Assembly: GCA_964016885.1 (NCBI GenBank)
Contig: OZ024743.1
Coordinates: 238,018,001-238,082,000 of the forward strand
Reading direction: 5' to 3'
Source: Eledone cirrhosa
Taxonomy: Eukaryota
Length of the DNA stretch: 64,000 nt
Below the pieces are notes generated by a model, which saw only the letters and a list, made by a program, of their open reading frames with translations, did no database searches and was not told the origin of the DNA. This document shows, in pieces, positions 1-60,941 of the stretch. The stretch's first letter is position 1; the number at the start of each line of letters is the position of its first letter. The position numbers and the translations under genes were made by a program.

Positions 1-290
1 TTAGCTCGACAGAAGGAGCCGTGACACTTTTTCATTTATCGAAACTTATTTGGATTTTGAAGTTTAAACATATCTACGGAACAGGTTTGGATTTTGAAAT
101 TTAAATTTGTCCAAGTACCTCGGCCATTTGCCAGTATGGTTTGTTTTTATTGATTTATTATTTTAAATCGAGACAGGCAAACTGTATTATTATAATTAGT
201 ATTTTTCAATCTAGCTAACTTAGTCATTTACAATACAAACACTTATATGTTGGTATTTGTGTTTATCATATATATTAATTTATATTAACT
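1..290 (+). mobile_element. Fragment of the 515-nt non-coding repeat family seen at 3107-3839; includes the 3' half of a hammerhead
   Basis: 40-270 aligns by eye with 3523-3770; GAAA(41-44) ctt...aag TT taaaca(65-70). Confidence 0.65.
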
Positions 291-321
291 TGTATATATA
301 TATGTATATATATATATATAC

Positions 322-352
<31 letters not shown>

Positions 353-553
353 TATATATGTATATATATATATAAATATATATGTATATATATATATATA
401 AATATATACATATATATACATGTAGATATATACATATATATATAAACACACATATATATATATATATATACATATACACATATATATATACACATATATA
501 CATATATATATATACACACATATATATATATATATAAATATATATATACATAT
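291..553. repeat. Degenerate (TA)n/(TACA)n microsatellite
   Basis: Seen directly; source of the YIYI ORFs. Confidence 0.95.
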
Positions 554-742
554 ACGATATTAAACAAATGGAAACTATATTTATAAAACCATATTTATTT
601 CGTTATATATATTTCTGGGATATCATATTAAAAATATGGTATGCCTTCCTCGTAAACCTACTCCAAAAACTGTTGAGTGCTTTTATATCAGTTATAAAAT
701 ATTTACTCGTTGTAACCCAACAATTTTAAATAAATCTTTTGC

Positions 743-827
<85 letters not shown>

Positions 828-828
<1 letters not shown>

Positions 829-1358
829 TAGCATTAAAGCCCGGAGTTGCTCAGGGTCAGTAAGTTACCAAATTTAAGTTGCACTACCCATTTTATGGCA
901 GCACTTTTTTGTGTGCCAGGCACTGGGTGAATGAATTACAGACCTGGACTCCCGAAGCAGGAGCTGCACCAGCAGAGACAATTGTAGTTTCGTCTACGGA
1001 TATTATCTTTGTGCAAAGAAGTGTTGAAATTTATTGTTTCACAGTACTTGCGCAACACGCGCGTAGACGACGCCAGCCGAACAACAGAGCTGCAATGGAG
1101 TTGTTCTGTATGGTTGTCTAATGTGTGTTTTCTAAATTTAAGACAGTAGGGAGGGGTGTAATATGGGGGAGAGTTAGCTGGTGTTTATAGCAGGTTTAGT
1201 GACCTCATAGAGGATATTGTGTATAGTAAATCATCTGATACTTCTTTCTTCCAAGTTCGTTGAGAGATGTTTTAAAAAAAGATTTATCGCTATTTTTTTG
1301 TGGTTGAATAAATTTATCTGCTGCTTTTGAATATTTGTTGTTTCGACCCAAAAACAAA

Positions 1359-1445
<87 letters not shown>

Positions 1446-1800
1446 TCACTCTCTTCTCTCTCTTCTTTCTTCGACATTCCTAAAGGAAGTTTGGAAGTTT
1501 AAGCATATATAAGATAAAGTTGCAGCATGTAAGTAGTTTTATCGAATTTTAAGGGGAGTAGAGAGAGGTACTCAGATTGTATTAGAGGGGTAAAGCGTCA
1601 TGTATTTAGTTTTATCGATTATTTCCGTAATTGTGGGTGAGTTTGAAATAAATAAATAGTCGTTGAACTAAATTAGAGCATTTACAACACTCTTACAGAC
1701 GTTGAGTCGAATCGGTTTGAAATTGTGCAAAAATATAAACATGGAACATGCACACCCCCACACACACAACAACAATCTGCCTTTTATAGATAAGGATTGA
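828..1800 (-). mobile_element. Non-autonomous Helitron-like element
   Basis: Minus strand starts TC(AATCCTTATCTATAAAAG) next to (TA)n and ends with a GC-rich hairpin (ccctgagcaactccggg) followed by CTAG-T; internal (CT)n at 1362-1440. Confidence 0.6.
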
Positions 1801-1948
1801 TATATATATATATATATATAATGTAGGAGGTGAGTTTTATTGTAGTACAATAAAGCAATGCAGATATCGGATAAGAAGCACTCTACAGTTTGTAGGACTG
1901 GAGTATGGATAATATAAGATCAAAAGATGGTTAAAGGAGTTCCATGTA

Positions 1949-2015
1949 TTTTATTATGCGCATTTCAAAAACAAACATCATCATGCAATAATATTTGTGT
2001 TTTCATCAGATAAAA
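1949..2015 (-). ncRNA. Type I hammerhead ribozyme (Penelope-type)
   Basis: Minus strand: ttttat CTGATGA aaaca...tgttttt GAAA tgcgca TA ataaaa; palindromic stem III. Confidence 0.8.
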
Positions 2016-2109
2016 CAGGAGAACATGATATGGAGGCTAAAAAACACTTGTGGATAGTGCAGTTTTAAATCAACATATGAAAAGTGGTTTTAGATTGATG
2101 TGTGATATT

Positions 2110-2525
2110 GGGAAAAATATTTTATTTAGAGAGGGGGGGGGGTGGAAAGGATGAAAAGGGTAGGAGATGAGAGGGAGAGATGGGTGATAGAGAGAAAGAG
2201 ATAGTTTTTATAACTGAGAGGAGATATATTTTTTGCATAGAGAGGTTGAAAACCGTTGGAAGATACTGTATAAATTAAAAATTTTGAAAATTAACGAAGG
2301 GAGGATATGTGCGAGGAAAAAATATTTTATTTAGGGAGGGGGGGGGAAAGGATGAAAAATAGGGGGAGGAGATGAGAGTGAAGATGGAGAGGGAGAGATG
2401 GGTGATAGAGAGAAAGAGATAGTTTTTATAACTGAGAAAAAGATATATTGTTTTAACATAGAGAGGTTGGGAACCGTTGGAAGATAATGTATAAATTAAA
2501 GGAATTTGAAAATTAACGAAGGGAA
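2110..2525. repeat. Imperfect tandem duplication of about 215 bp, probably in a decayed Penelope 3' region
   Basis: 2110-2300 resembles 2315-2525; 2540-2590 recurs at 2810-2860. Confidence 0.7.
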
Positions 2526-3106
2526 ATTATGTATGAAGATATAGAGAAAAAAATAATAATTGTGGATGAATATTCTAACGTCAAAAAAAGAAATGTATGT
2601 ATTGTGGCAATTTCAAAATTAACGAAGAGAAAAATTATTAAGGTTTGTGTGTAGAAGGATTTGAGAAAAATAATGTGAAGTTAAAGTTTGTATATTGATT
2701 GAATTGATAATATATGCGAATAAAGAGTTAATATGTATTAATAATGAGTTCGTTGATGGGGAGAAAAAAATAATAAATTAAGGATGAAATTGAGATTAAA
2801 AAGATTTATGATAGAGAGAAAAAATAATAATGATTGTGGATGAATATTCTAACGTCAAAACAACAGATGTATATGTTATGATTTGAGGGTAATGAGTAAA
2901 CAAGTATTATAGAGTGTATAATGCCCTTTAAAGTAAGGTAGATGGGTATATTTTAAAGAGGTGTATGTATATGTGCCTTTGAGAAAAGATTCTAAATTGA
3001 TAAAGAATTGAATATTAACTGTATACTTTGTGAAAAGTTCTATGGAATTTATGCAGGCAGATAGAAAACAAATCTGTGCGTCTATTTATTATAGAATCTA
3101 GGTTAG

Positions 3107-3831
3107 ATTGATATGCTTCACTTCTAAATAATTTAAAAGACTGCGTGACGCACATGGTTTAACAGTATCTAGCTAGTCTCATAACCGTACTGCTAGAAAT
3201 AACAATAAGCATGTGTTGGTATCTGTGTTTCATCACATACATATTAGTTTATACACGGCTCAGTGGGTATTTTCCTCCTTCGAGCTAATTCCATTGTAAA
3301 AGAATTCATTACCTTATTAATATAACTGCTCCTAGTCTGAGCTGAAAGCCGCCTCATATATACGACTGTTATTTCTAGCAGTACGGTTATGAGACTAGCT
3401 AGATACTGTTAAACCATGTGCGTCACGCAGTCTTTTAAATTATTTAGAAGTGAAGCATATCAATTTGTCCCTGGATGTTTACCGAGGAGAGCAGGACATG
3501 ATATTCCTACACTTATTTATCTCGAAACATATTTGGATTTTAAAGTTTAAACTTATCTACGGAACAGGTTTGATTTTGAAATTTAAATGTGTCTAAACAT
3601 CATAGCCTTTTGGCAATGCAGTTCGTCTTTGTTGATTTATTATTTTAAATCGATATGGACAAACTGTAGTATAATAATTAGTATACTTCAATCTGGCTAA
3701 ATTTTCTTTTGCAATATATATACAGATGTGTTGGTATCTGTGTTTCATCACATACATATTAGTTTATACACGGCTCAGTGGGTATTTTCCTCCTTCGAGC
3801 TAATTCCATTGTAAAAGAATTCATTACCTTA

Positions 3832-3839
<8 letters not shown>
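3107..3839 (+). mobile_element. Retrozyme-like non-coding element: 515-nt unit, terminal direct repeat and inverted 98-bp copy
   Basis: 3211-3324 repeats at 3726-3839; 3107-3204 is the reverse complement of 3367-3464; ends in (TA)n; contains a hammerhead-like motif. Confidence 0.65.
3477..3552 (+). ncRNA. Type I hammerhead-like motif with U4C core
   Basis: gttta CCGAGGA gag...ctc GAAA cat...aag TT taaac; the paralogue at 41-70 has a better stem III (ctt/aag). Confidence 0.55.
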
Positions 3840-3895
<56 letters not shown>

Positions 3896-3902
3896 TATAT
3901 AT

Positions 3903-4042
3903 ATAATGAGGGAAATGTGGTACGGAACCAGATGGACCATAACGCACCAAAGTACTCAATACTTAGGGTAGTAGAGTGGGTAATAGGAACGAGTAGGACC
4001 CCCATGGCTGAGCTCAAGCCGTTTCGACGGCTAATTCTGGAC
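3903..4042 (-). mobile_element. Penelope pseudo-LTR terminal fragment with half a hammerhead
   Basis: Same ~140-bp sequence as 28545-28683, 30061-30200, 32703-32845 and 59417-59560; always abuts (TA)n. Confidence 0.75.
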
Positions 4043-4074
4043 ATATATAATTCTGGATATATATATATATATAT

Positions 4075-4705
4075 ATGAAAAATGGCGTGCTGCGTTGTTA
4101 CAAATGGGATACATATGAATAAAATTAGAGCGAGAGTCCGTCATCAGTGATCTTCCAGCCGTCATTGGTATTTCTTCGCATTAAAGATCATATACCTCTG
4201 GCTGGTGCGGGCAATAACTAAAAAAAGTTATTGGGACACGTAGAATAGGGTGAAGCGAGCGAGACATATAAACAAACAGAGATGGTAATGCAACGGAAAG
4301 AGAGGAAGAGGGGAAACAAGTCCGTGATATCTATGAACTTAAGTTCGATCAAATCATGGACGAGGAGAGACACAGACGCGTTCGAGCCATGTGAGATGTA
4401 AGCGAGAAAAGGATTTCACACAGGTCAGACTGGAGGAAGTGAGAGAGAGGGAGTAGCAGAGAGTGAGTGAGTGAAAGTGTGAGGAAGAGGCCAGCTGAGA
4501 GAGAGTGACTGGCAGAGGGGGTGAAATGAAGGTGAGCAACAACGCAGCACGCCATTTTTCATTTATATTTTGCCCTCTGCTGTGACCAATCTGTTTCTTT
4601 CTTACTGCTATCCTCTTTATCTCTCCCTGTATCTCTCACCTTCATTTCACCCCCTCTGCCAGTCACTCTCTCTCAGCTGGCCTCTTCCTCACACTTTCAC
4701 TCACA
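4075..4705 (-). mobile_element. Non-coding element of the permuted-hammerhead family: minus segment 4075-4538 plus inverted segment 4537-4705
   Basis: Homologous throughout to 53425-54236; the plus segment duplicates both ends of the minus segment. Confidence 0.7.
4140..4209 (-). ncRNA. Candidate non-circularly permuted hammerhead ribozyme, copy A
   Basis: cgca ccagcc aga ggta TA tgatctt taa tgcg aa GAAA tacc aatgac ggctgg aagatca CTGATGA c. Confidence 0.6.
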
Positions 4706-6049
4706 TCAACCATTGCTCCTCACCACTACCTCGTCACTACACTCACCCCACCCCACCCCCACCTATCATACATGCCAAAACATTCCTCATAATTAAACCA
4801 CCAATCAAAACAACATAAACTGAGCAACATATTAATGCGAAACGTTAGACATTTATATGCCATGTATATTCAATGTCATTACTACAACAGAGGTCAGACG
4901 AGCTTTTGATTCCAGAGTCGGACCAGATCGATACAGATCGAACCTTGAGGTGATAAATAGTGAAACGCAAATCACCAATCAACAAACGTAATGAAGGCTT
5001 AACAAATCGTCCTTGTATTAATATTATACTACACTCTGTCTAGCTCTACACCTCGCCACTGACATGAACCTAAACATCGAGTGCTCACCTGGGTGAACCT
5101 AGGGTAACCTCACGTTACCCTCCCTGTATATATATATATATATATATGAGGAGAAGAAATCTAAAATGCAACTGGAGTCTTTTAACGAATATTTATTTGT
5201 TTCCTTATCACCACCACCTCCTCCGCATTAGATGTGACTAACAGAAGGTGAGTCATCAATATCAGTTAGCATAACAGCTGCAGCAGGGTTGGAACAAACT
5301 GGCACTCAAAGAATGAGTTGAGTTTTAGTTTCTGTTGATAAATCAATGTTCAAAATTTTACCATCAGTGGTTCTCACATATATAACAGAGAATTGGATAT
5401 CCTTCATAATGAGGGTAGGGTCAACATTTTCATCCTCCTTGCTTTCTCTACTCTCTTCAACAAAACTTTCATCCGTTATTTCATCTTTTAACACTTAGTA
5501 GGAATGGTTTCCTTTGTCTTCAAGCCAGATTCTACTAACATATTCTGTGGCATCTGTTTCACCTGCCTTTTGAAGTATATCATAACACAAAACTTTCAAA
5601 CAGAATATTACAGCCATGAGGTTATAGTAGTTTTTAAATGTTACTGACAGTTCTTTCTTCTTGTGTGTCTTCCATAAGATTCTCCTTCTCTATCACCATG
5701 ACACTTTTGTTCACATCTTTAGTCATGAGCTTCAATTATATCTTGATCCATTGCTTCAGTCCTCGGGATAACACTGACAGGCATTGACATCAGTACTAAC
5801 AATCTGAGTGGGCACGTGTGTAGCTCAACATTAACAGCACCATCAGTTGATCAGTAGAAAGTCATCTTGTTATTTACACACTGCATGTGAAGCAAAATCA
5901 AAACTGCAATGATAAACTCGAAAGATAAAGAATAACTGATGGTCTGAAATTTAAAAAGAGATGCATAGGGCTTATAGCTGCAGATACTTGAAGGCATTAT
6001 ACAGAAAAATAAGGCAAGACTTTTGGTCCACAGCCGTAAAAAGTGAAGT

Positions 6050-6750
6050 CAAAAGATGGGAACTTCCTCATCATAGATCCAGTGGGAATTATGAGTCAGT
6101 GGACTGAACACTTTAAATATATGTTTGATAACCCATCAGTAGTTGATGAGGAAAGTATTAATGGACTGTCACAAAAGGAGACGGTAACAGATCAATGATC
6201 CAACCATTGATGAGATAAGGTCTACTATCAAAGAGATAAACATAGGATAAGCTCCAATTTGGATGGAATACCCGTCGAGCCGATCCGCTTTGGAGGAGAC
6301 AATGCTGCTACAGCCGTTCATAGGCTCTCGATTTACAAGGGCAAGGGTTCCAATTCAGAATGTGGTGATTGTCATGGTATAAGTCTGCAACAAGTGTCAC
6401 TATACCAAGTATTTGCAGACCTTACCAAAGCCTTCGATACTGTTAATGGTAGTGCATTGTGGGTTATATTAGGTAAACTTGTATTCCCCCATGAATTTGT
6501 TGGAATATTTAAAAAAACTCCATCAAAATATGAAAGCAAAAGTGAACTTCAAAGGGACACTGTCAGAGCCAATATCAGTGGAAAATGGTGTGAAGCAAGA
6601 CGACATACTTGCATCCACTCTGTTCTCCATCTACTTTGCCGGGGTGCTGACATATGCATTCCAAGCCTTCGAAATCGGTGTATACTTGCGAATTAGAACT
6701 TCTGGCAAAGTATTTAATCTAAGACTGTTTAACACCAAGTCCAAAACAGC
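6050..6750 (+). mobile_element. RTE-clade LINE RT fragment, internally deleted
   Basis: VFADLTKAFDTV and GVKQDDILASTLFSIYF motifs in frameshifted ORFs. Confidence 0.85.
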
Positions 6751-6754
6751 ATCA

Positions 6755-9300
6755 GCTCTCTCTTTTTGGGGTAGGTAAACCCATAGCTAAACGGAGAGAG
6801 GGTGGTGTTGGCTTCGCCATTAGAACATCCCTGCTTGATCGTATGGAATGTCCTACTGGTGTAACCGATGGTATTATGAAGCTTTGTATTCCTCTGAGAT
6901 ATGGCCGTTATGTAACACTTTTATCTGTTTATGCACCAACCTTACAGGCCAGTGAGGTGGTCATTGGTTCTTTCTATGAGTCTCTTCGTGCTGCACACCT
7001 TTTCAATATAAATTATTACTTCTCAGTGATTTTAATGCTCGTGTGGGTACTGATCACGAGACATGGGGCGCCCTCGATCCATTTGGTTTTGGTAAAATGG
7101 ACACCAGCGACCTGATGTTGCTTGAACTCTGCTCAGAACTCAACTTAACCATCTGCAACACTCTTTTCCGTCAGAAGCTCAAATATAAATATAACTGATA
7201 TCATCCAAAATCCAAGCATGGACAGATGATTGATTTCATAATAACTCTTAAACGAGATCTAAGTGATGTATGTACAGTGCGTGTGTTGCGTAGTGCAGAA
7301 TGCGGCTACAAATTAGTGCGAGGAAAGTTCAAGATGAGTATTCACAAAAGGATTCGTATTAGTGGAGTGAAAATACCGAAACGCATTGATGTCACCAAAT
7401 TGAGACAAGCAGATGTGCATGCAACCCTAACTGAAAGATTTGATGGTCTTTTGAAGGCACCTGGGAAAACTTTAGAGATAAAGTTTACTCAGTGGGAGCT
7501 GATGTACTTGGCTTCAGAACCAAGAAACACCAGGACTGGTTCGATGACAACAATCCTAATATCAATCAGCTACTGAAAACCAAGCACACTCTATGAAAAT
7601 TTCCTGAATCAGAATCCCGTAGCACAACCAGCTGTCAGAAAAGCCTACATAGACCACAGGGCATCACTGCAACGCGAACTGCGCAGGATGCAAAATGAGT
7701 AGTGGAGTAATATCTCTTCGGAAATCGAACAGGCTTTTAACACCAAAGATTCGAAGTCATTTTACTCATTGATACGCCAAGTCTTCGGCCCACCAAGTAA
7801 CTCAGTAACTCCTCTGAGATCTAAAGACGATGCCAATATCACCGTCAAAGAGCCATCAAAAATCCTTCAGCATTGGGAGGAACATTTTACTGACCTGTTT
7901 GACAAACCATGAGCAGTAAATTTTGGAGTAATAGAGGGCCTTACTCAATGTGAAACAGTCCACCGTATGGGTCGACTTTCCTCTGCTGATGAGATAAAGC
8001 TTGCAGTCAAGCAGGTTAACTCTGGCAAGGCACCAAGTCCAGATGGTATCTCAGTCGAACTGCTGAAAGTCGGTAGTGATAATGTAACAGAAGCAATAAA
8101 CAACTTCATCACTGATTGCTGGAATGGGACCCCAGTTCCGCAAGACTGGATCAACAGTATTTTGTTATCATTATATAAAGGACGGTGAATTGGCAGTATC
8201 GTTAGTGAGTCGGACGCCATGCTTTCCAGCATAGTTACGTCTCTTTACGGTCTGAGTTATAATCCGGTCGAGGTTAACTTTGCCTTTCATCCTTACGGGG
8301 TCGATAAAATAAAGTACCAGTAATGTACTGGGTAATTGCCGGCCTTGTGCTAAAAGTAGAAACAATTATACAAAGGCAAAGGTAAAAAATCGATATGTGG
8401 AAACCGTGGCATCACTTTGTTGGAAGCTGTTGGCAAGGTTCTTGCAGGACTTTTGTTCAACAGTCTAGAAGAAGATATCTGTCCTATAGCTATCCCAGAA
8501 TCACAGAGTGGTTTTAATGAGGAAGGGGAGCAGTTAACATGATTTTCTCTGTAAGACAAATACAAGAAAAATGCATTGAGCAGTGTGTCCTATATCAAGT
8601 CTTTGTCGACCTAACGAAGGCTCTCGACACAGTTAACGGAGAGGCACTCTGGATAATACTTGGAAAAGTAGGATGTCCACCCAAGTTTGTGAGTATGCTA
8701 AAGCAGCTGCACAGAAATATGAAAACTTGGGTTACCTTCAATGGTCAACTATCTGGGGAAATCCCAATTGACAACGGAGTAAAGCAAAGTGATATTCCTG
8801 CTCCTACACTTTTCTCCATCTTCTTTGTTGCCTTGCTCACACACGCTTTTCATGATTGTGACAGGCATTCTCTTACGGTTCAGAACCACTGGAAAGGTTT
8901 TCAACTTAAGAAGGTTTAATGCCAAGACAAAAACTTTGATCAGGGACCTTCTTTACGCCGACGACGCTGACTTCCTAGCATACACAGAAGCTGACATGCA
9001 ATACATTATGGACCGTTTCTCATTCTCATGTACAGCATTTGGGCTTACAATCAGCCTTAAAAAGACGAAAGTAATGTTTACCCCTGCTTCTCGAGAACCA
9101 TATACTTAACCCCATATCATGGTTGATGGAACCAGGTTGGGAGTAGTAGATAAATTTGTCTACTTGGGTAGCACACTCTCAAATGATGGCTCCTTGGATG
9201 CTGAAATACATCTGCGCATCCAGAGGCCTCTGTTGTCTTCGGAAAATTGGAAAAGAGAGTTTGGGCAAAATGCAACATTACCGCATAAATCGCATAAAGG
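6755..9300 (+). mobile_element. Degenerate RTE LINE (APE endonuclease + RT)
   Basis: SVYAPT, MIDFII, KAPSPDGI, FVDLTKALDTV, LLYADD, FVYLGS; many stops and frameshifts. Confidence 0.9.
8182..8364 (+). mobile_element. tRNA-derived SINE inserted in the RTE
   Basis: A/B-box-like head and conserved gcctttcatccttacggggtcgataaaataaagtaccag body; flanked by attatataaagg (8170-8181) and attatacaaagg (8365-8376) as a likely TSD; interrupts the ...LYKG|KG... RT frame. Confidence 0.85.
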
Positions 9301-20123: not shown

Positions 20124-21917
20124 TTAAATGTTTTTTTTTAGTTTATGATTACACGATATAATTAATTCCTGTCGTTTATTTAATAGGATATCCTTAGATT
20201 TCATTATTTCAAATAGTTCTTGGGAACATAATCTACATTCATTTCTATTATTTTGATAAGGGGTGGCTCTTTTGAGCACACTCCAGGTCAAATCATATTC
20301 TATATTCCTATTTTTATAACTATTGATTTTTTCTGCTAGAGATGTTGTATTAGCCAGTGCGGCATTTTTAAAACTATCTTTGTGGGTATTAAACCTTGTC
20401 TTAAAATTGTTAGAAGTAGCTCCTATATATGAGCAAATAGAATCTTTAGTTTTAACATTACATTTATAAACTATGTTGTTAACAAGACAATTTCCTTTTA
20501 ATGGGCAGTTTGCTTTGTTTCTACAGTTACAACCTTTCGTTAATTCTGTATTTGAGGAGATATTATGGTTAGTTTGATGTATTGGTGGTATACTTATGGT
20601 TTTCTTACATTTATATGCATTATAGGCACTTATATTTTGTTTTATGTTATTTGTTGTTGAGTATGAGAATTTAACTGTAGACCTATTTAAGATTTGATGG
20701 TATTTGTGGTTTGGCGGGAAGTTTTTCTCTAGGATATAAAAAAATTTTTTAGCAATATTATCCTTAATTTGTAAATTAAATGGAGCATTATACCAAGTAA
20801 CTCGTCTATTACGGTTTCTATGTTGTTTATTATTTTTATTATTTTTATAGGTTGTATCGTGATGTTTACTAGGAGGATTAATGTTAATGATCTCACCACA
20901 ACCATTTTTAGTTATATTTGTAGATTTAGGTGTTTTATCTTTTTTATTAGGAGTTTTATTATTAATATTTATTAGAGTTGTATGATGAGTAGTTTTTTGA
21001 GAGTTACTATATTTTATATTAGAAGATTTGGTATTTTGGGGTATAGTGTGGGTGGCATTTAGGTGTGTACTTTTCATTTGGTGTTTGTTGGTAATATTAG
21101 GTTGTATGTTTTTAGTATTTTTAGTAGAAGGTATATATTCTAATCTATTTTTGTGGCCACTTCTATCTAGAGCTTCGTTATAGAAGGTCGCATTTTTATC
21201 AAATACATCTTGGTTAGAAGAAAGGTTAGAAATTCTAAGTGATATATTATATGCAAGGTTTTTAAGGATAGATTTAGGGTGATTAGATTGTGAGTGTATG
21301 TAATGTAAGTTTTGGTTGGGTTTATGGTAAGGTTGGTAGATACCCGTAGCTAAGTCTAAAGTTATATCTAGGAAATTTACTACTTTACTTGTTTTTTCAA
21401 AAGTAATATGAAGACTATAATAGTCTTTAAGGAAAGTTCTAATATGCTTTTTGTTTTTTTCTATTTCTGAAAGGCTAAGGTTGTTGGAAAGAAGAAGACA
21501 GTCATCACGATATAAACCACCTTTAAGGTGGGGAAAGGAGGCATTTATGTTGAAAAGGAGAAAGAGGCCCACAAGATCAGTAATTTGGGCGGAATCGCTT
21601 GAACCCATAGTAATATCAAATAGATTACTATATGTGTTTCTGGTCCAGTATTCATTCTGAAATTCAATAAGTGTTAGTCTAGCATGTGTAATAATATTAA
21701 TGTCATCCAAAGTTAAGTTAGATCTATTTTTAGCAAATATCAATGCTTTGTTCAGGAGTATAGGTGATATAGAAGAATAGTAATTATCTATATCAAATTG
21801 TAGAAATGAAGCAGAAGATTTACATCTAATATTTTTAAACCAGTTAATTACCTGGGAAGTGTTTTCCCAGAGTGGTAAAATAACGTGTTTTCTTATTTGT
21901 GGGATGACTCTATCCAA
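20124..21917 (-). CDS. Penelope-like RT + GIY-YIG endonuclease, N-terminally truncated, 597 uninterrupted codons
   Basis: FDIDNYYSSI, ITMGS, LYRDD, NFLDITL; CNC...CPL..C linker; IVYKC...YIG; CRLC..E. Confidence 0.9.
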   Translation of the reverse strand: MDRVIPQIRKHVILPLWENTSQVINWFKNIRCKSSASFLQFDIDNYYSSISPILLNKALIFAKNRSNLTLDDINIITHARLTLIEFQNEYWTRNTYSNLFDITMGSSDSAQITDLVGLFLLFNINASFPHLKGGLYRDDCLLLSNNLSLSEIEKNKKHIRTFLKDYYSLHITFEKTSKVVNFLDITLDLATGIYQPYHKPNQNLHYIHSQSNHPKSILKNLAYNISLRISNLSSNQDVFDKNATFYNEALDRSGHKNRLEYIPSTKNTKNIQPNITNKHQMKSTHLNATHTIPQNTKSSNIKYSNSQKTTHHTTLININNKTPNKKDKTPKSTNITKNGCGEIININPPSKHHDTTYKNNKNNKQHRNRNRRVTWYNAPFNLQIKDNIAKKFFYILEKNFPPNHKYHQILNRSTVKFSYSTTNNIKQNISAYNAYKCKKTISIPPIHQTNHNISSNTELTKGCNCRNKANCPLKGNCLVNNIVYKCNVKTKDSICSYIGATSNNFKTRFNTHKDSFKNAALANTTSLAEKINSYKNRNIEYDLTWSVLKRATPYQNNRNECRLCSQELFEIMKSKDILLNKRQELIISCNHKLKKNI

Positions 21918-21942
21918 AATTTTTTTGCTAATTATTCCAATA

Positions 21943-22012
<70 letters not shown>

Positions 22013-22416
22013 AGGGGATTTCATTCGTAACTAATCTATGGAAAAATACTAATGATATTATAAAATGATTTATAAAATTACATAATAAGATGAATGCAAC
22101 ATTTTTGAAATTTGTATTGACAGCTATACATGAATTCCCCCGATCCTTCTAAACAAAGAACTAATAATGGCCTTCATTAATATTACTAGATAGGATATTG
22201 TATGGGCTGTCCGGTCACTGATATAGCATATATATATATAACGTCAATCAACTCAACAGTAAGGGAGTAGTAAATATGAAATTATGTCTAGCGGTATCTA
22301 TACTTGTCTTTGTCCTGGGTACAAATATTCACTTGTTTGTTTGATCTATACATGTGTGAAAATCTACGGTTCTTCCATCCACTAATAGGGAAATATTTAT
22401 TTATACTTTCAAAGAA

Positions 22417-28496: not shown

Positions 28497-28590
28497 ACCC
28501 CTTGAGAAGATCGGCTATTTAAATACCAGGATAAATTTTCATTTAGTCCAGAATTAGCCGTCGAAACGGCTTGAGCTCAGCTGTCGGGGT
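28497..28590 (+). ncRNA. Type I hammerhead with U3-A8 core in Penelope pseudo-LTR (about 28070-28683)
   Basis: acccc TTGAGAA gatcggcta...tagccgtc GAAA cggcttgagctcagctg TC ggggt. Confidence 0.75.
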
Positions 28591-28681
28591 CTTACTGGTT
28601 CCTATTACCCACTCTACTACCTCAAGTATTGAGTACTTTGGTGCGTTATGGTCCACCTGGTTCCTTACCACATTTCCTTCG

Positions 28682-30063: not shown

Positions 30064-30260
30064 CGAAGGAAATGTGGTAAGGAACCAGGTGGACCATAAC
30101 GCACCAAAGTACTCAATACTTAGGGTAGTAGAGTGGGTCATAGGAACGAGTAGGATCCCGACGGCTGAGCTCAAGCCGTTTCGACGGCTAATTCTGGACC
30201 TTTTAGTCCAGAATTAGCCGTCGAAACAGCTTGAACTCAGCCGTCGGGGTCCTACTCGGT

Positions 30261-30263
<3 letters not shown>
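30061..30263. mobile_element. Two inverted Penelope pseudo-LTR fragments
   Basis: 30140-30199 and 30206-30263 are reverse complements; (TA)n on both sides. Confidence 0.75.
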
Positions 30264-30309
<46 letters not shown>

Positions 30310-30879: not shown

Positions 30880-32845
30880 GTGTGTGTGCATTTGTTGTTG
30901 AGGGGGCACGTAGATCTATCAGGGCAGTTACACCTCCTGGTCGGCTCTCCACTGATGTCTAGGTTATTTCTTCCATAGGGTTTGTGTTTTTTGTTGTTTG
31001 AGGAGACGATGTTTTGTGCGAAGTTAGGTGTGGTGATGTAGGAGATTTTGATCGTGTTTTTGTTGGTTATGTTGTGGTAGCGGTGGTGTAGTGGGGAGTG
31101 TTTTTCGAGGAGTCTAAAGAAGATTTTCCCGATAGGTGTTGCCACCTCGGCATTATGGGGAGGATTGAACCACGTTACGTTAGGTGAGCGGCGGTGTTGC
31201 CTGCTGGTTCCGCTAAGGGAAGCTGGATAAAAGGATATTTCCTCCCGGAAGCCACTCCGCTTGAGGGCCTAGTTGTAATGAGGCGCGTGTTTGTCGAATA
31301 TCTGCACATTAGCGAACAAACGAGATATGCAGAGGGAGATGTTTTTAACCAGGTTATTGGTGATGTTTCTAGGATGGTTAGAGCGGTGGTGGATGTAGTG
31401 CAGGTTGTTGTTTGGTTTCGTGTATGGGTAGTACATATTATTTTCGAGGTTAAGGGTAACGTCCAGGAAATTGACTCGGAAATTGACTCTGGAAGAAATA
31501 AACTAGACATCAATGGAGAGCCGACCAGGAGGTGTAACTGCCCTGATATATCTACGTGCCCCCTCAACAACAAATGCTGAGAACGTAACGTGATCTACCA
31601 GTGCAACGTGAGGACGGACACCTCCAACAAAGCTTATATAGGATTAACCGCGTGTGACTTCAAGACCTGGCTCTACCAACACCGACATACTTTCCGAAAC
31701 CCGGTCCGGCGACATGCCACTACACTTTCGGGCCACATCTGGGATCTCCAAGATAATAATATAACCTACAATCTCACTTGGAGCTTTCTGTCCAGAGCTA
31801 ACTCTTACACGGGAGGACGCCGTCCGTGTAACTTATGCTCGGAGGAAACATTACAAATGCTGTTTTCGAAAGATCAACTCCTAAACAAGAAAGACGAACT
31901 GGTAACCGCATTCAAACACAGATTGCGTAGGACTTACCTCGCCCTCAAACCCCATAACGACCCGGGTGGGTAGACAAGGGCTGGTACCCCCCACTTGCCG
32001 AATAAGTTAGGGGAAACCCCAGCTTACATAGGTAGATGTATCTCTTTTCTTTTCTTTTCTTTTCTTTTCCTCTTTGTCTTCTTCTTCCCCCCTGTCTCAT
32101 TCTATCACTTCCTTCCACCCCCTATTTTCTTCCTCGTCTGCTTTTCCTCTTTCGCCTACCCCGATGCAGCCCATCGGGCCTCTGTAGCATCAGTTCCCCC
32201 ACCCCTGTAATTTTAAGATAGAATTGGCCGAATACGTTTTACTAACTACTTATAGCAGACTTTAATTTTGTATCAGTTTTGGTACTACTAAATTTCTACA
32301 AGTTTTTTCTATTCTCAACTTATTAATCTGTAATTGTAAGATAGCATTGTGATTTTTTAAATTCATTTCTCACTATCTAATTTTATATATTTTTTTATTT
32401 CTTTATATTATCTTTTATTGTCTCCTACTCCCATTCGATTTACCTATTCTATAACCTCCCTCCTCCACTTCATACACTATTCTGCTGTATACATATCACT
32501 TTCAACGCTTGACCGCTCCACTCACTCCCCTATTGTTCTACAGGCAAGTTCAGCCAGCCCTACCTCCCACCAATTGCCATGATAGACTTATTTGTGTTTA
32601 CAACAAATTTTAACCAATCCTCTTGACAACTAAAATCTTCCCATATAAGGAAGTACCCCCTTGACAAGTTCGGCTATTTATTCACCAGGCTAAAAATTCT
32701 AATTTAGTTCAGAAATAGCCGTCGAAACGGCTTGTGCTCTGCCGCCGGGGGTCACACTTTTTCCTATTTCCCACTCTACTACCCTAAGTATTGAGTACTC
32801 TGGTGCGTTATGGTCCATCTGGTTCCTTACCACAATTCCTTTGTT
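30880..32845 (+). mobile_element. Penelope-like element with inverted 5' part
   Basis: Minus 30880-31480 encodes RT C-terminus and linker; plus 31480-31973 encodes CNC..CPL..C and IYQC...YIG; 3' pseudo-LTR to 32845. Confidence 0.85.
32655..32752 (+). ncRNA. Hammerhead with U3-A8 core; cleavage site mutated (GCC)
   Basis: accccc TTGACAA gttcggctattt...aaatagccgtc GAAA cggc...gccg CC gggggt. Confidence 0.65.
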
Positions 32846-49059: not shown

Positions 49060-49151
49060 TAGTATATGTTGGTTGTATACCAACACCTCAGTATGCAGGC
49101 TGGAGCACTCGACGAAGTGCGCAGGTTGGTTTGGTTACTCCCGGAGTAATG

Positions 49152-52100
49152 TAAAATAAAGTTAAATAAAAAGTCAAATGTTTAAAATTTAGCTTCGTTT
49201 ATTACTGCTATATATATTTCAGTGACAGCCATCTTTGGCTGTGACCTCTTTGGGCAGTCCGAATTAGTGTGGTTTAGACAAGTATATATGTTGTTGAGGT
49301 GTATAATATTGTGAATACTCTGATATGCCCAGTTCCTGGTTGGGTTGTTATTTCACTAAGGAACTGGAATCATATGAATTCAAACAAACGAATTTCAGCG
49401 TCAAAGGACCTCTTCTCCTCTCATTGGTCAGTTGTTAGAACATTCCTCATTCTAAGTGTTGTTATTGTTGGAGTTAGCTTAAAAAATTGATAAAGTGGTA
49501 GAAGGGACAAGGTGTTAAAGGAACAAAATAACAAAAAAAGTGTCAAACTTCCCATTGGTCAGTTCTGAGAGCATTCCTCAGTCAGAAGTCTATAGAATTC
49601 TTTCTGGGGTGAGGCTCCCTGTAGTGTTTGTGTTACAAAAATACACCTGGATTTACCCTGGATGAGATCAATGCCACAGCTTACAGGTTTATATCTAGAA
49701 TCGGCATAGAGGACAGGACGGCGCCATACCAACCAAGGGAGCCGCGGATTACCCTTAAAGATCACGAGCCAAACTTTGAGTCCGACCTCCCTGTCAGACC
49801 AATAGCCCCCTCCAGATCTGACCTAGGGATCGTCAGTAAAAGAATACTGGATAGGATTTTGCCCAAGCTTCGGAAGAAAACTAAATTAAAGCAATGGTCA
49901 TGCACGGGAGAAGTAATAGAATGGTTTAAAATACTGCATGAGAAAAGTAGGACCAGCTTTATACAACTGGACATCGCAAGCTACTACTCCTCAATCTCAC
50001 CCATAGTACTTAATAAGGCCCTATTTTTAGCGATGTCCAATACGGACCTAACCCGCGAGGAGGTGAGCATCATCCACGCCGCAAGAAATACCTTAATCCG
50101 TTTCGATGGAGACCTTTGGACCAGGAGTGATTGGCCAAATAACTTTGACATCACGATGGGCTCCAGCGACTCAGCAAAGGTAACGGACCTGGTTGGGCTC
50201 TACCTGCTGAAGCAGATAAAAGATGAAATCCCCTGCTTGGGCGGCGGATTATACCGTGACGATGCTCTATTCACAGTATATGACCACAGCACCAATATGT
50301 TGGAGGGAATGAGGAGACGTATTCGCCATTTCTTTAAGAACCAGGGGCTCATTATAGAAATAGACCCAAATAGGAAGGTAGTTAACTTCCTAGACACCAC
50401 CCTAAACCTGAACACCGAACAATACTACCCCTACCACAAGCCCAACGAGAAACTCGTATATGTTAACGCCAAATCAAACCACCCTATATCCTTAACCAAG
50501 GCAGTGGTGAAGAGTGTCTCGGACAGGATCTCCAGCCTGTCCGCAAGTAAGGAAATATTCAATAACCACGCGTAATATTACAACGCAGCTCTAAAGAAGG
50601 CGGCACATGGCCAAAATATAACATATAGTCCGAAACGCCGGGATGGGGATAGCCCAACAGACACCCACACCCGCGTTGCCCGGGGGGGGGGTACCCTAAC
50701 AATACAGGCAGAGCTGAAACAAATAGGCACCATGTGCCCGACACCACCACACGGGCGGTGGTGACTAGTACACTTAACCACGAGACGAAACACAATATGA
50801 GTAACAGTCTCAGGGGTGACGCTAACCACCCCAGGACCGACGACCCCAACCGCAGGACACATAGGGGGAACGGGGGACCACCCCACGATAGATCTCCCAG
50901 CGCGGGCAATGACCACCCCACAGATTCCGGCCGTGAAGATAACAAAAAGCATAGCGCCCAAAGGGGAAGAAACAGTGCAGAAACCACCAGCAACCCAACA
51001 AATCTCCAACAAATCACGACGCCCCCGACCCACACATATAGGAGGAGACACCGAAAAATCACGTGGTACAACCCACCCTACTCAGCGGCCCTAAAGAACA
51101 GCTTGGCCCGATCATTCTTTGGAGCACTTGATAAATGCTTCCCGAGGGACCACAGATACCACAGGATCTTCAACAGACACACTGTGAAGCTCTCGTATTC
51201 CACCACGAGAAATCTGGCCCAACACATAGCTAGCATCAACAGGAGTAGGCTTAAAAACCACACACAAACAGAAGATGGCAATACAAGCACTCAGCAGAAC
51301 CATGTGAAAGGAGGGAAGGGGGGACCCAGAGCCCACCAAGATACCCAAACAGACCCGGGGATCCCCCACCGTGCCTTGGGGAATACCAACATGTAATACA
51401 TAACGGGAACCCTAATCTAGGCACGCAGAGGTCGACCACCATCTGCAACTGCAGAAACCCCGAATCATGCCCCCTTGGTAATGAATGCCTGAAGAAGAAC
51501 CTAGTATACGGTTGAAGGGTTAAAACCCCCAACTCCGAACACCTCTACATAGGAGCCACATCAACGAGCTTTAAAGACCGCTGGTACAACCATCGCCATT
51601 CATTCAAAAAGGAGGCCAAAAGGAAAAGCACGGCTCTCTCCGACCTGATCTGGAAGCTTAAGCTGGACAGGACCCCGTACTCTCTGGCCTGGTACATAAT
51701 CAGGAAAGTACCACCCGATAAAGGGGGATCCTGCATATGCAAACTATGCCTGAACGAGACCCTCGAGATACTAAGAGGAGGAAGCGGCCTGATAAACCTC
51801 AGAACCGACTTCTTCGGGACATGCAGACACCTTAGAGCCGGGACCTTCCTCAAGATATATGGACAGTAACAACACAAGAAGATGTGAACTCCTCTCAAGC
51901 TATAGGGACTTCTACAGAACATGTAAACACCTCTCAGCCAGACCTCCATCAAGCTATATGTGCAGTAACAACACCCTAGGTTGTGAACTCCCCTCAAGCC
52001 ATAAGGAACAACCCAGGCTGAGCAGACACCATGATAGCCTAGAGATTGAATCGGACACAGCCATTATAATTTGGCCAACATCTATATAACACAAACACAT

Positions 52101-53182
52101 TTTAATTTACTTGATTTCTGACTTTCAAGTCCCAATTTTAAATCTTGATTTCTCTTTATTAATTTGTTATTTGTTTTCTACCCTCTTCACTGTATCACCT
52201 TATATTTATTTTTAAGTTGAGATTGATTATTACACAAACACATTTTGTTTGATTATCTTATTTTAACATCTTGTACCTCATACCAATCTATCCAACATAT
52301 TTCTGACTTTGAGATTGGTTATAGCACACACACACTTTATCCTACTTTATTTGAATCTTCATTTTATTTTTCACTTCTCCATGTTCATTTTCATTACTTT
52401 TTCACCAATTTTTCATTTATTCTTTATTCTTTATTCTTTATTCTCTATTTATTATTTATTTTCAAATTATACAAATTATATTATTTATTTTCTGTTTTCT
52501 TCATATATTGCCTTATATTTCTTCATATACATGGAAGACCCCTCCCCCCCACCACCACCACTATGAGAGATGGTGGCAGGAGGGATGAAGAAAAAACACT
52601 CACAGATACTTCTAAATTGTCAACAGAAGCAAAACATAAGCTGACCACAACACCAACAACACTACCAAAATAATGGTAGTGGTCAAATGTGCTTAACAAT
52701 AGCAAACACAAACACTACAGGGAGCCTCACCCCAGAAAGAATTCTATAGACTTCTGACTGAGGAATGCTCTCAGAACTGACCAATGGGAAGTTTGACACT
52801 TTTTTTGTTATTTTGTTCCTTTAACACCTTGTCCCTTTTACCACTTTATCAATTTTTAAGCTAATTCCTACAATAACAACACTTAGAATGAGGAATGTTC
52901 TAACAACTGACCAATGAGAGGAGAAGAAGCCCTTTAACACTGAAATTCGTTTGTTTCAATTCATATGATTCCAGTTCCTCAGTGAAATAACAACCCAACC
53001 AGGAACTGGGCATATCAGAGTATTCACAATATTATACACCTCAACAACGTATATACTTGTCTATACCACACTAATTCGGACTGCCTGAAGAGGTCACAGC
53101 CAAAGATGGCTGTCACTGAAATATATATAGCAGTAATAAACGAAGCTTAATTTTAAACATTTGACTTTTTATTTAACTTTAT

Positions 53183-53183
<1 letters not shown>
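49152..53183 (+). mobile_element. Penelope-like element with inverted pseudo-LTRs, intronic
   Basis: 49152-49634 is the reverse complement of 52703-53183; RT 49628-50575 (LYRDD); linker; GIY-YIG remnant at about 51440-51860; premature stops. Confidence 0.92.
53080..53134 (+). ncRNA. Type I hammerhead ribozyme in 3' pseudo-LTR
   Basis: actgc CTGAAGA ggtcacagcc aaagat ggctgtcact GAAA tatata TA gcagt; the inverted copy at 49203-49258 has a mutated core (CCAAAGA). Confidence 0.85.
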
Positions 53184-53213
<30 letters not shown>

Positions 53214-53266
53214 GATAATAATGGAGCTGCGGCGCTGCAAATGGGTTACATATGAAAAAGTTTATC

Positions 53267-53336
53267 CTCATTAGTGGCCTTCCAACCGTCGTAGGCATTT
53301 CGTCGCATTAAAGGCCATATACCTCAGGTTGGTGCG
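53267..53336 (-). ncRNA. Permuted hammerhead copy B, core mutated (CTAATGA)
   Basis: Reverse complement of copies C and D with G5A. Confidence 0.5.
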
Positions 53337-53520
53337 AGCAACGGCTAAAAAAACTCGTTGGGACACATAAATAAAGGGGACGCTAGGGTAAACAAACAAA
53401 ATGGTTTAAGCAACAGAAAGTGATGCTTCTTCATCACTTTCTGTTGCTTAAACCATTTTGTTTGTTTACCCTAGCGTCCCCTTTATTTACGTGTCCCAAC
53501 GACTTTTTTTAGCCGTTGCT

Positions 53521-53590
53521 CGCACCAACCTGAGGTATATGGCCTTTAATGCGACGAAATGCCTGCGACGGTTGGAAGGCCACTGATGAG
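53521..53590 (+). ncRNA. Candidate non-circularly permuted hammerhead, copy C
   Basis: cgca ccaacc tga ggta TA tggcctt taa tgcg ac GAAA tgcc tgcgac ggttgg aaggcca CTGATGA g. Confidence 0.62.
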
Positions 53591-54151
53591 GATAAACTTT
53601 TTTCATATGTAACCCATTTGCAGCGCCGCAGCTCCATTATTATCATATTTACACATATATTTTTTCCTCCGCTGCCACCAGTCTGTTTCGTTCTTTGTGT
53701 CTTTACCCTTTCTAGCAGTCTCTCTCTCTCTCTCTCTGTTAGCCTCTTCCTCACCTTTCACTCACTCACTCTCTGTCACTACCTCTCCTCCTCCCCTTTC
53801 TTCCCGTTTGAGCTGTCCGTAATCCTTTTCTCGCGGGCACTTGGCCAAGCCGGTATGAATTTTTTTCTCTCTCTCTCGTCTGCGACTTCACAGAACTTAT
53901 GTTTACCGAATTCGCAGACCAGACCCCTTCTTCCTCCCGTTAGACCTGTGCGAAATTCCTTCCTTGCTCACATTTCAACCAGGTTTGATGGTCTTTATTC
54001 TCTCGTTCACGATTCCACCGAATTTATATTCATAGAAATCTGGGACTTGTTTCTTTCTTCTTCATCACTTTCTGTTGCTTAAACCATTTTGTTTGTTTAC
54101 CCTAGCGTCCCCTTTATTTACGTGTCCCAACGACTTTTTTTAGCCGTTGCT

Positions 54152-54221
54152 CGCACCAACCTGAGGTATATGGCCTTTAATGCGACGAAATGCCTACGAC
54201 GGTTGGAAGGCCACTGATGAG
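54152..54221 (+). ncRNA. Candidate non-circularly permuted hammerhead, copy D
   Basis: As copy C, 631 nt downstream. Confidence 0.62.
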
Positions 54222-54230
54222 GACAACCTT

Positions 54231-54295
<65 letters not shown>

Positions 54296-59229: not shown

Positions 59230-60941
<1,712 letters not shown>

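Follow-up and report, generated by a model that had tools for sequence, protein, structure and literature searches.

The closest described systems to the repeat studied here are the type-SGC hammerhead ribozymes, the metazoan retrozymes and the Penelope-like elements (PLEs). Type-SGC hammerheads (HRIMA-1 and its variants) are a non-circular permutation of the hammerhead, and the text of the paper describing them places none in the genomes of known organisms (PMC10085705). Metazoan retrozymes form RNA circles (Cervera and de la Pena 2020, PMC7229834), and a PLE ancestry has been argued for them (Li et al. 2026, 10.64898/2026.07.22.740005); in the text of both sources, non-LTR retrozymes are defined by type I cores. 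For PLEs, the text of one study describes partial tandems, an inverted 5'-truncated copy and a tail of 30–40 bp (PMC8557442), and that of another reports that both strands of AT-rich DNA are nicked by the purified PLE and that the Penelope reverse transcriptase (RT) has two internal start sites, which delimit the tail and act mainly on unprocessed tandem RNA (PMC11167929). Naiad PLEs are described in the text of PMC8557442 as having no canonical hammerheads, a 'half core' being annotated for one of two octopus entries.

In the window, by which we mean the whole 64,000-nt stretch of Eledone cirrhosa DNA that was analysed, the locus at 4075–4705 consists of two arms of a retroelement that is non-coding, non-autonomous and present in thousands of copies. 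Our main reading, to which we give a probability of roughly 0.72, is that this retroelement carries an S-G-C hammerhead core predicted to be self-cleaving, and that a Penelope-type enzyme is likely to insert it into (TA)n, using as template an RNA that exceeds one unit. Self-comparison of the window placed the left arm on the minus strand from 4536 to 4075, followed by a remnant of the (TA)n target (4060–4074); this arm comprises 0.88 unit of family A and passes through the predicted ribozyme to one of two recurrent 3' ends, the 'long' site. The right arm (4537–4704, plus strand) corresponds to unit positions ~100–267 after the predicted cut: 4538–4562 is an exact 25-bp reverse complement of 4075–4099, 4563–4634 contributes 72 new bases, and 4635–4704 is an exact 70-bp repeat of the minus arm's first bases. 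This is the minus/plus arrangement with a shared end that an earlier note on this DNA had described, its lengths of 24, 75 and 65 bp now corrected to 25, 72 and 70. Base 4537 is C, as in a family reference copy at that place, and the left arm has T. The repeating unit measures 534 nt here (543 nt in another copy), where ~535 nt had been estimated, and is colinear with the 631-nt unit of the window's second element (53426–54056, previously given as 53425–54055). The two units agree at 65% over 443 aligned columns, with best blocks of 73–74%, which bears out the proposal that both elements are one family. The second element, of family B, has a left arm (53212–53425, minus) that ends at the long site and has a mutated CUGAUGA, and a right arm of 1.29 units (53426–54236, plus) that ends at the 'short' site and holds two S-G-C cores (53533–53589 and 54164–54220).

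The plus arm of the locus crosses the end-to-start junction of the unit without a seam, which upholds the claim of a template longer than one unit, and the same junction was found elsewhere, most family copies running through it uninterrupted, as do arrays of more than four units. It is a fixed 3' insertion (priming) site, here the long one, and not an RNA end. The 24-bp apparent terminal inverted repeat is a by-product, as had been suspected, and a DNA transposon with such termini is ruled out because the repeat is unit sequence that reads on continuously in tandem copies. Only ~1.05 units of template are required by this locus, which therefore cannot separate a circle from a linear template. 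The right arm's own 3' end lies off the usual sites and is linked to the 3' end of R, a repeat of another kind (4699–5127, plus), through 6–7 shared bases of microhomology; R ends in (TA)n, and the junction is either a template switch or a later deletion. Repeat R is itself abundant (4353 first-look candidates), has a fixed 3' end at (TA)n, contains a decayed hammerhead-like stretch near 4935–4975, and at 10 loci had no PLE ORF nearer than 1.5 kb. A further short repeat associated with (TA)n, often beside element copies, occurs at 3906–4058, 28546–28680, 30065–30265, 32707–32839, 59418–59556 and 60880–60941. The neighbourhood of the locus has a duplicate 198 kb away that is 98.8% identical and is not independent support; it is either a segmental duplication or an uncollapsed haplotype. 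Window positions 1–7734 match 237818000–237827900 (locus L329), with ~8 kb or more duplicated at 98.8%.

In the 3.0-Gb genome assembly, the first-look candidates of two DNA searches numbered 5681 and 2989, with 40 scored each time, and a conserved core pattern had 4034 exact matches against none for its reversed control, with a second core pattern giving 82 against none. There are five unit types of 520–644 nt, mutually 62–71% alike apart from the close pair C1/C2 (86%). All are non-coding and tandem with one hammerhead each, and arrays of more than four units show no seam at the junction. Among the best hits, family B copies are 96–99% identical to the window copy and family A copies 89–95%; judged by such divergence, family B copies are young and family A is older. 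Many further old, low-copy families (L106–L120, L238–L257), mostly decayed, have the G-then-C spacing of the same core, with the S block 16–18 nt before GAAA.

When the two strands of the window were scanned for each of the six block orders, three hits emerged, every one of them S-G-C and located in the two elements; the circular hammerhead types I–III were not found for the element's motif in that scan. Rfam returned no family at gathering score in the window, and only sub-threshold hairpin matches at 3800–5200. With its outer scaffold, the predicted hammerhead spans 4136–4237 on the minus strand. Block S (4184–4196) comprises the 5' strand of stem III (4196–4192), an unpaired A (4191) and a stem I strand (4190–4184); block G (4167–4174) comprises GAAA and the 3' strand of stem III; and block C (4140–4154) comprises the stem I partner strand (4154–4148), CUGAUGA (4147–4141) and position 10.1 (4140), a C that faces A in the family A subfamily. 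The core letters CUGAnGA, GAAA and U-H are all present, and by analogy with hammerheads the predicted cut separates 4191 from 4190. All that is left of stem II is the single pair 10.1–11.1, which is standard in 16 of 24 copies; the strand following CUGAUGA and the one preceding GAAA are paired instead with an upstream strand. The resulting scaffold consists of helix X (4234–4237 with 4136–4139), hairpin H (4212–4233) and helix Y (4206–4209 with 4177–4180), together with helix Pa (4200–4205 with 4155–4160), which extends stem III.

At 29 family B loci, which were chosen for covering the whole query and are biased to long copies, the 3' ends of 37 of 39 arms fall on two sites in (TA)n. These sites lie ~40–50 nt apart, 67–91 and 107–130 nt after the predicted ribozyme cut, and at our locus they delimit a 40-nt 'tail' (4075–4115, minus) between the short site at 4115 and the long site at 4075. 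The 3' termini are fixed, and the 5' ends vary widely. The different break points that the earlier note observed in the two insertions are real, but, with 3' ends fixed and 5' ends variable, they are truncations, such as any target-primed Penelope-type insertion shows, and not random circle openings. Back-to-back insertions make up 29 of 135 loci, with 22 pairing a long with a short end, one pairing two long ends, none pairing two short ends, and six, the locus at 4075–4705 among them, having one end off-site. The tail signature in (TA)n is the one described for PLEs, and the element shows the traits of a non-autonomous PLE: partial tandems, 5' truncation, an inverted 5' copy, a tail bounded by two 3' ends and a microsatellite target. 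The tandem and inverted layout alone is ordinary for Penelope-type elements and already known.

What form the template takes is a separate matter. From its permutation points the earlier note had deduced a circular or multimeric RNA; the over-unit template stands, and the break points no longer count as evidence for a circle. Since every copy passes the predicted cut, the template must have been uncut or rejoined there. We put even odds on rejoining into a circle, and odds that fall short of even on an uncut tandem RNA. Internal RT starts at two sites on unprocessed tandem RNA would give the same picture without a circle. Variation among the repeats of single loci bears on this point. Fifteen rare variants are common to all repeats of a locus, where ~0.4 would be expected (62 loci, 15,539 positions, 271 unshared variants beside the 15 shared), and the repeats of one locus mostly agree in their lineage markers (A38T in all repeats of 12 loci, in some repeats of 2 and in no repeat of 31; A525C 4/0/30; A528T 4/0/32). 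These patterns favour the repeated copying of one sequence. The rate at which arms stop, per unit, is 1.3 before one turn, 3.1 from one turn to the second cut and 2.1 beyond, and the excess after one turn has p=0.002 in a stretch chosen after the data had been seen. These rates come from 83 arms at pattern-chosen loci; three were merged by hand, and 20 listed fragments, hits at an edge and arms whose 3' end is off-site were dropped.

The strongest alternative, which we place only a little short of an even chance, is that the template was never a circle, being instead uncut read-through or pseudo-LTR-type tandem RNA, and that arrays are kept by template switching and unequal DNA exchange. The divergence of family B agrees with this, being barely lower within loci than between them (1.8% versus 2.0%, p=0.066, 29 loci); in family A it is 5.4% within and 7.5% between (p=0.024, 11 loci). 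In addition, markers are mixed between turns in four loci (L054, L318, L034 and L317), the long arrays consist of blocks with a 3'-most stretch unlike the remainder, a pattern that also fits template switching or unequal DNA exchange, and the excess of 5' ends 40–80 nt after the cut could be a transcription start region. Weighing against it are the general uniformity of the markers and the occurrence of shared rare variants in copies of less than two units as well, which unit duplication cannot make. Moreover, 5' truncation erodes tandems, so that something must regenerate them.

An origin of the inverted shape of this one locus at the DNA level, after insertion, is unlikely. It would involve a fold-back or replication template switch in an older copy of 1.05 units, followed by a deletion to R. 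The internal duplicates of the locus are identical over 95 nt, while within-locus repeats of family A differ by ~5%, and the right arm ends off the usual site with microhomology to R, both of which such an event would explain. Back-to-back arms are nevertheless a habit of the family, as the counts above indicate, and the inversions of family A at L003 and L027 start their second arm at most 8 nt from the same position. Whichever way the inversion arose, the junction pre-existed in the template.

In an alignment of 24 copies chosen across subfamilies, 90.4% of 840 cells in the seven helices pair, and double-sided changes occur in 22 of 35 pairs. None of 500 shuffles reached the observed pairing or covariation and slid controls gave 29–45%, counts that are support and not probabilities because the copies were picked with a pattern fixing the core letters, are related, and are the same sequences from which the structure was derived. 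Changes on both sides affect five of the seven pairs of stem I and three of the five of stem III, and the scaffold helices covary too. U-H precedes the cut in 74 of 76 distinct cores and U-G in none, a count biased by the requirement for TA when loci were fetched, and both core blocks are kept in 27 of 30 rows of a list that mixes incidental neighbours with central hits. In thermodynamic terms the motif is not unusually stable (z=-1.26), and folding recovers X, H, Pa and III. A covariance model run on 43 sequence sources hit element copies only, with none beside Naiad RT remnants and none in young Neptune units, and a scan of part of a metagenome collection gave marginal pairing in 1 of 117 loci. 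On this structural model, the S-G-C hammerhead is predicted to self-cleave. It is improbable, in our view, that the core no longer cuts in the family A subfamily and persists solely as a structure that the helper enzyme recognises: subfamilies A and D do have a C.A mismatch at 10.1–11.1, and the DNA copies bear no trace of a cut, but units that, close subfamilies aside, are only 62–71% alike have retained all core letters as well as the U-H rule. At locus L313, near 1500, an inversion junction runs via two complementary strands of ribozyme stem I.

Very unlikely is a cut linear monomer whose break RT jumps to make over-unit copies. In its favour, template switches occur (possibly including the R junction at the locus) and small indels touch the cut in three single copies (L029, L315 and L335). 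Against it, a single arm of 83 ends 3 nt or less from the cut and 18 pass it a second time, 5' ends do not pile up at the predicted cut, junctions fall there in 3 of 9 cases compared with 3 of 8 at a control position, and private indels lie within 2 nt of it in 1 of 39 (p=0.61; 2 of 39 counting an L029 deletion that spans the cut). With neither junctions nor indels in excess at the cut, routine jumping across a severed end is disfavoured.

We consider that the ribozyme was probably inherited from a Naiad. By eye, the 3' ends of two octopus Naiad consensuses show the S-G-C order with H, Y, Pa, III and I (PMC8557442 supplement). Among 20 Naiad RT remnants in the genome, one has an S-G-C core ~400 nt after the end of the ORF on the same strand and none has one in antisense; one core per 20 remnants is about the background density of such elements, yet this core is contiguous with the ORF end, and 11 relatives at 70–74% have the same order in decayed form. 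The exact octopus Naiad 3' motif had no matches in the genome, and neither the sequence upstream of 20 divergent cores nor any of 180 element loci contained a Naiad RT. An intact or young Naiad was absent from the top matches of three protein queries and two peptide patterns, which were decayed and Naiad-like only, and a search of the genome with a longer protein likewise found none. The Naiad matches are old, 84 besides the query having 36–73% identity and mostly stops, and the top hits of the other two queries were the same remnants. In the stretches displayed for non-cephalopod Naiad 3' ends, S-G-C wiring was not visible by eye (PMC8557442 supplement). The claim is limited to octopus Naiads on that account. 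Bivalve Naiad 3' ends have, by eye, what we take to be an HDV-like look. An ostracod Naiad 3' end shows, also by eye, an S-C-G order with extra pairings (PMC8557442 supplement).

The present helper is probably an element with a C-terminal endonuclease, of Neptune type. The 150 scored matches to a Neptune-type RT are all at 99–100% and without stops, and young Neptune-type elements carry ordinary type I cores. Because no alignable similarity was found between the element units and five PLE regions, and the Neptune elements have the other core type, the helper is not identified by homology. The lack of an intact Naiad and the abundance of young Neptune-type elements make a change of helper likely, and from these sequence comparisons we infer that the element probably arose from a Naiad and changed its helper later. 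The window's own PLE ORFs are ruled out as Naiad, with RT preceding the endonuclease, and from this domain architecture we take their clade to be Neptune-type; Pfam gave no families for three proteins. One of these PLEs (20124–22148, minus; L325–L327) is very young, with 830-aa frames, 6.6-kb tandem units and 32,023 first-look candidates, and has a type I hammerhead with ~116 nt in place of stem II. Another (49625–53190) has a type I hammerhead core at 53085–53137 (plus) followed by AATAAA at its 3' end, and an inverted copy lies within 49149–49485.

The cycle we propose would begin with the transcription of copies that have two ribozymes. The ribozyme would cleave at 4191/4190, with some or all of the RNA then rejoined as a circle, for which the chances are balanced, or else left uncut, for which they are slightly poorer. 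The helper would nick both strands of a TA repeat and prime RT inside the RNA at the two fixed sites. Each cDNA would pass the intact ribozyme site and stop variably, more often just after one full turn, and its synthesis may sometimes switch template. Two cDNAs joined back to back would give the inverted form. More tentatively, and with the odds against it, the element may possess an active, knotted S-G-C hammerhead in which a multi-helix junction stands in for stem II. That hammerhead would be the missing ribozyme of cephalopod Naiads, having seeded a large radiation of circular-RNA parasites that outlived their Naiad parent in the genome and are now copied round by Neptune-type enzymes.

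In a mostly non-subscription literature, no report was found that places an S-G-C hammerhead in an animal genome or retroelement, a point to which the supplementary material of PMC10085705 and that of the preprint may be relevant. The comparison with known systems suggests that the ribozyme variant and the Naiad link are new and that the layout of the insertions is not. As described in the text of Eckert et al. 2023, type-SGC hammerheads are like the element's motif in S-G-C order, core letters, stems I and III and the three-base linker after stem I. They differ in that their stem II covaries and a further helix connects stems I and II at their far sides, and the element shows no sign of either; it has no ordinary stem II helix, with at most one pair capped by X, H and Y with the upstream strand, and Pa extends its stem III. 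Type-SGC is known from environmental sequences, and the version found here is in animal genomic repeats. Thousands of covarying animal copies with a new scaffold for stem II would extend hammerhead architecture.

With non-LTR retrozymes, as their sources' text presents them, the element shares non-coding tandem units with one hammerhead each, a GC content below 50%, dispersal as monomers to multimers and a proposed dependence on Penelope. Retrozymes have type I hammerheads in units of 170–450 nt and their circular RNAs have been shown; the element has the S-G-C order in units of 520–644 nt. The type I core that defines non-LTR retrozymes is replaced by that order, and surveys limited to type I motifs would undercount such elements. 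The Naiad and Neptune PLEs, going by the text of Craig et al. 2021 (PMC8557442) and Frangieh et al. 2024 (PMC11167929), share with the element partial tandems, an inverted 5'-truncated copy, a 30–40-bp tail, (TA)n targets and RT starts ~85–90 nt or more after the ribozyme cut; they differ from it in that the element has no ORF and no sequence similarity to the five PLE regions tested. Its short young copies with two fixed priming sites offer a direct test of whether Penelope enzymes copy circles or uncut tandems. The S-G-C wiring would also account for the failure of descriptor searches to detect a ribozyme in some Naiads, the 3' ends of the octopus Naiads having an S-G-C core like that of the element.
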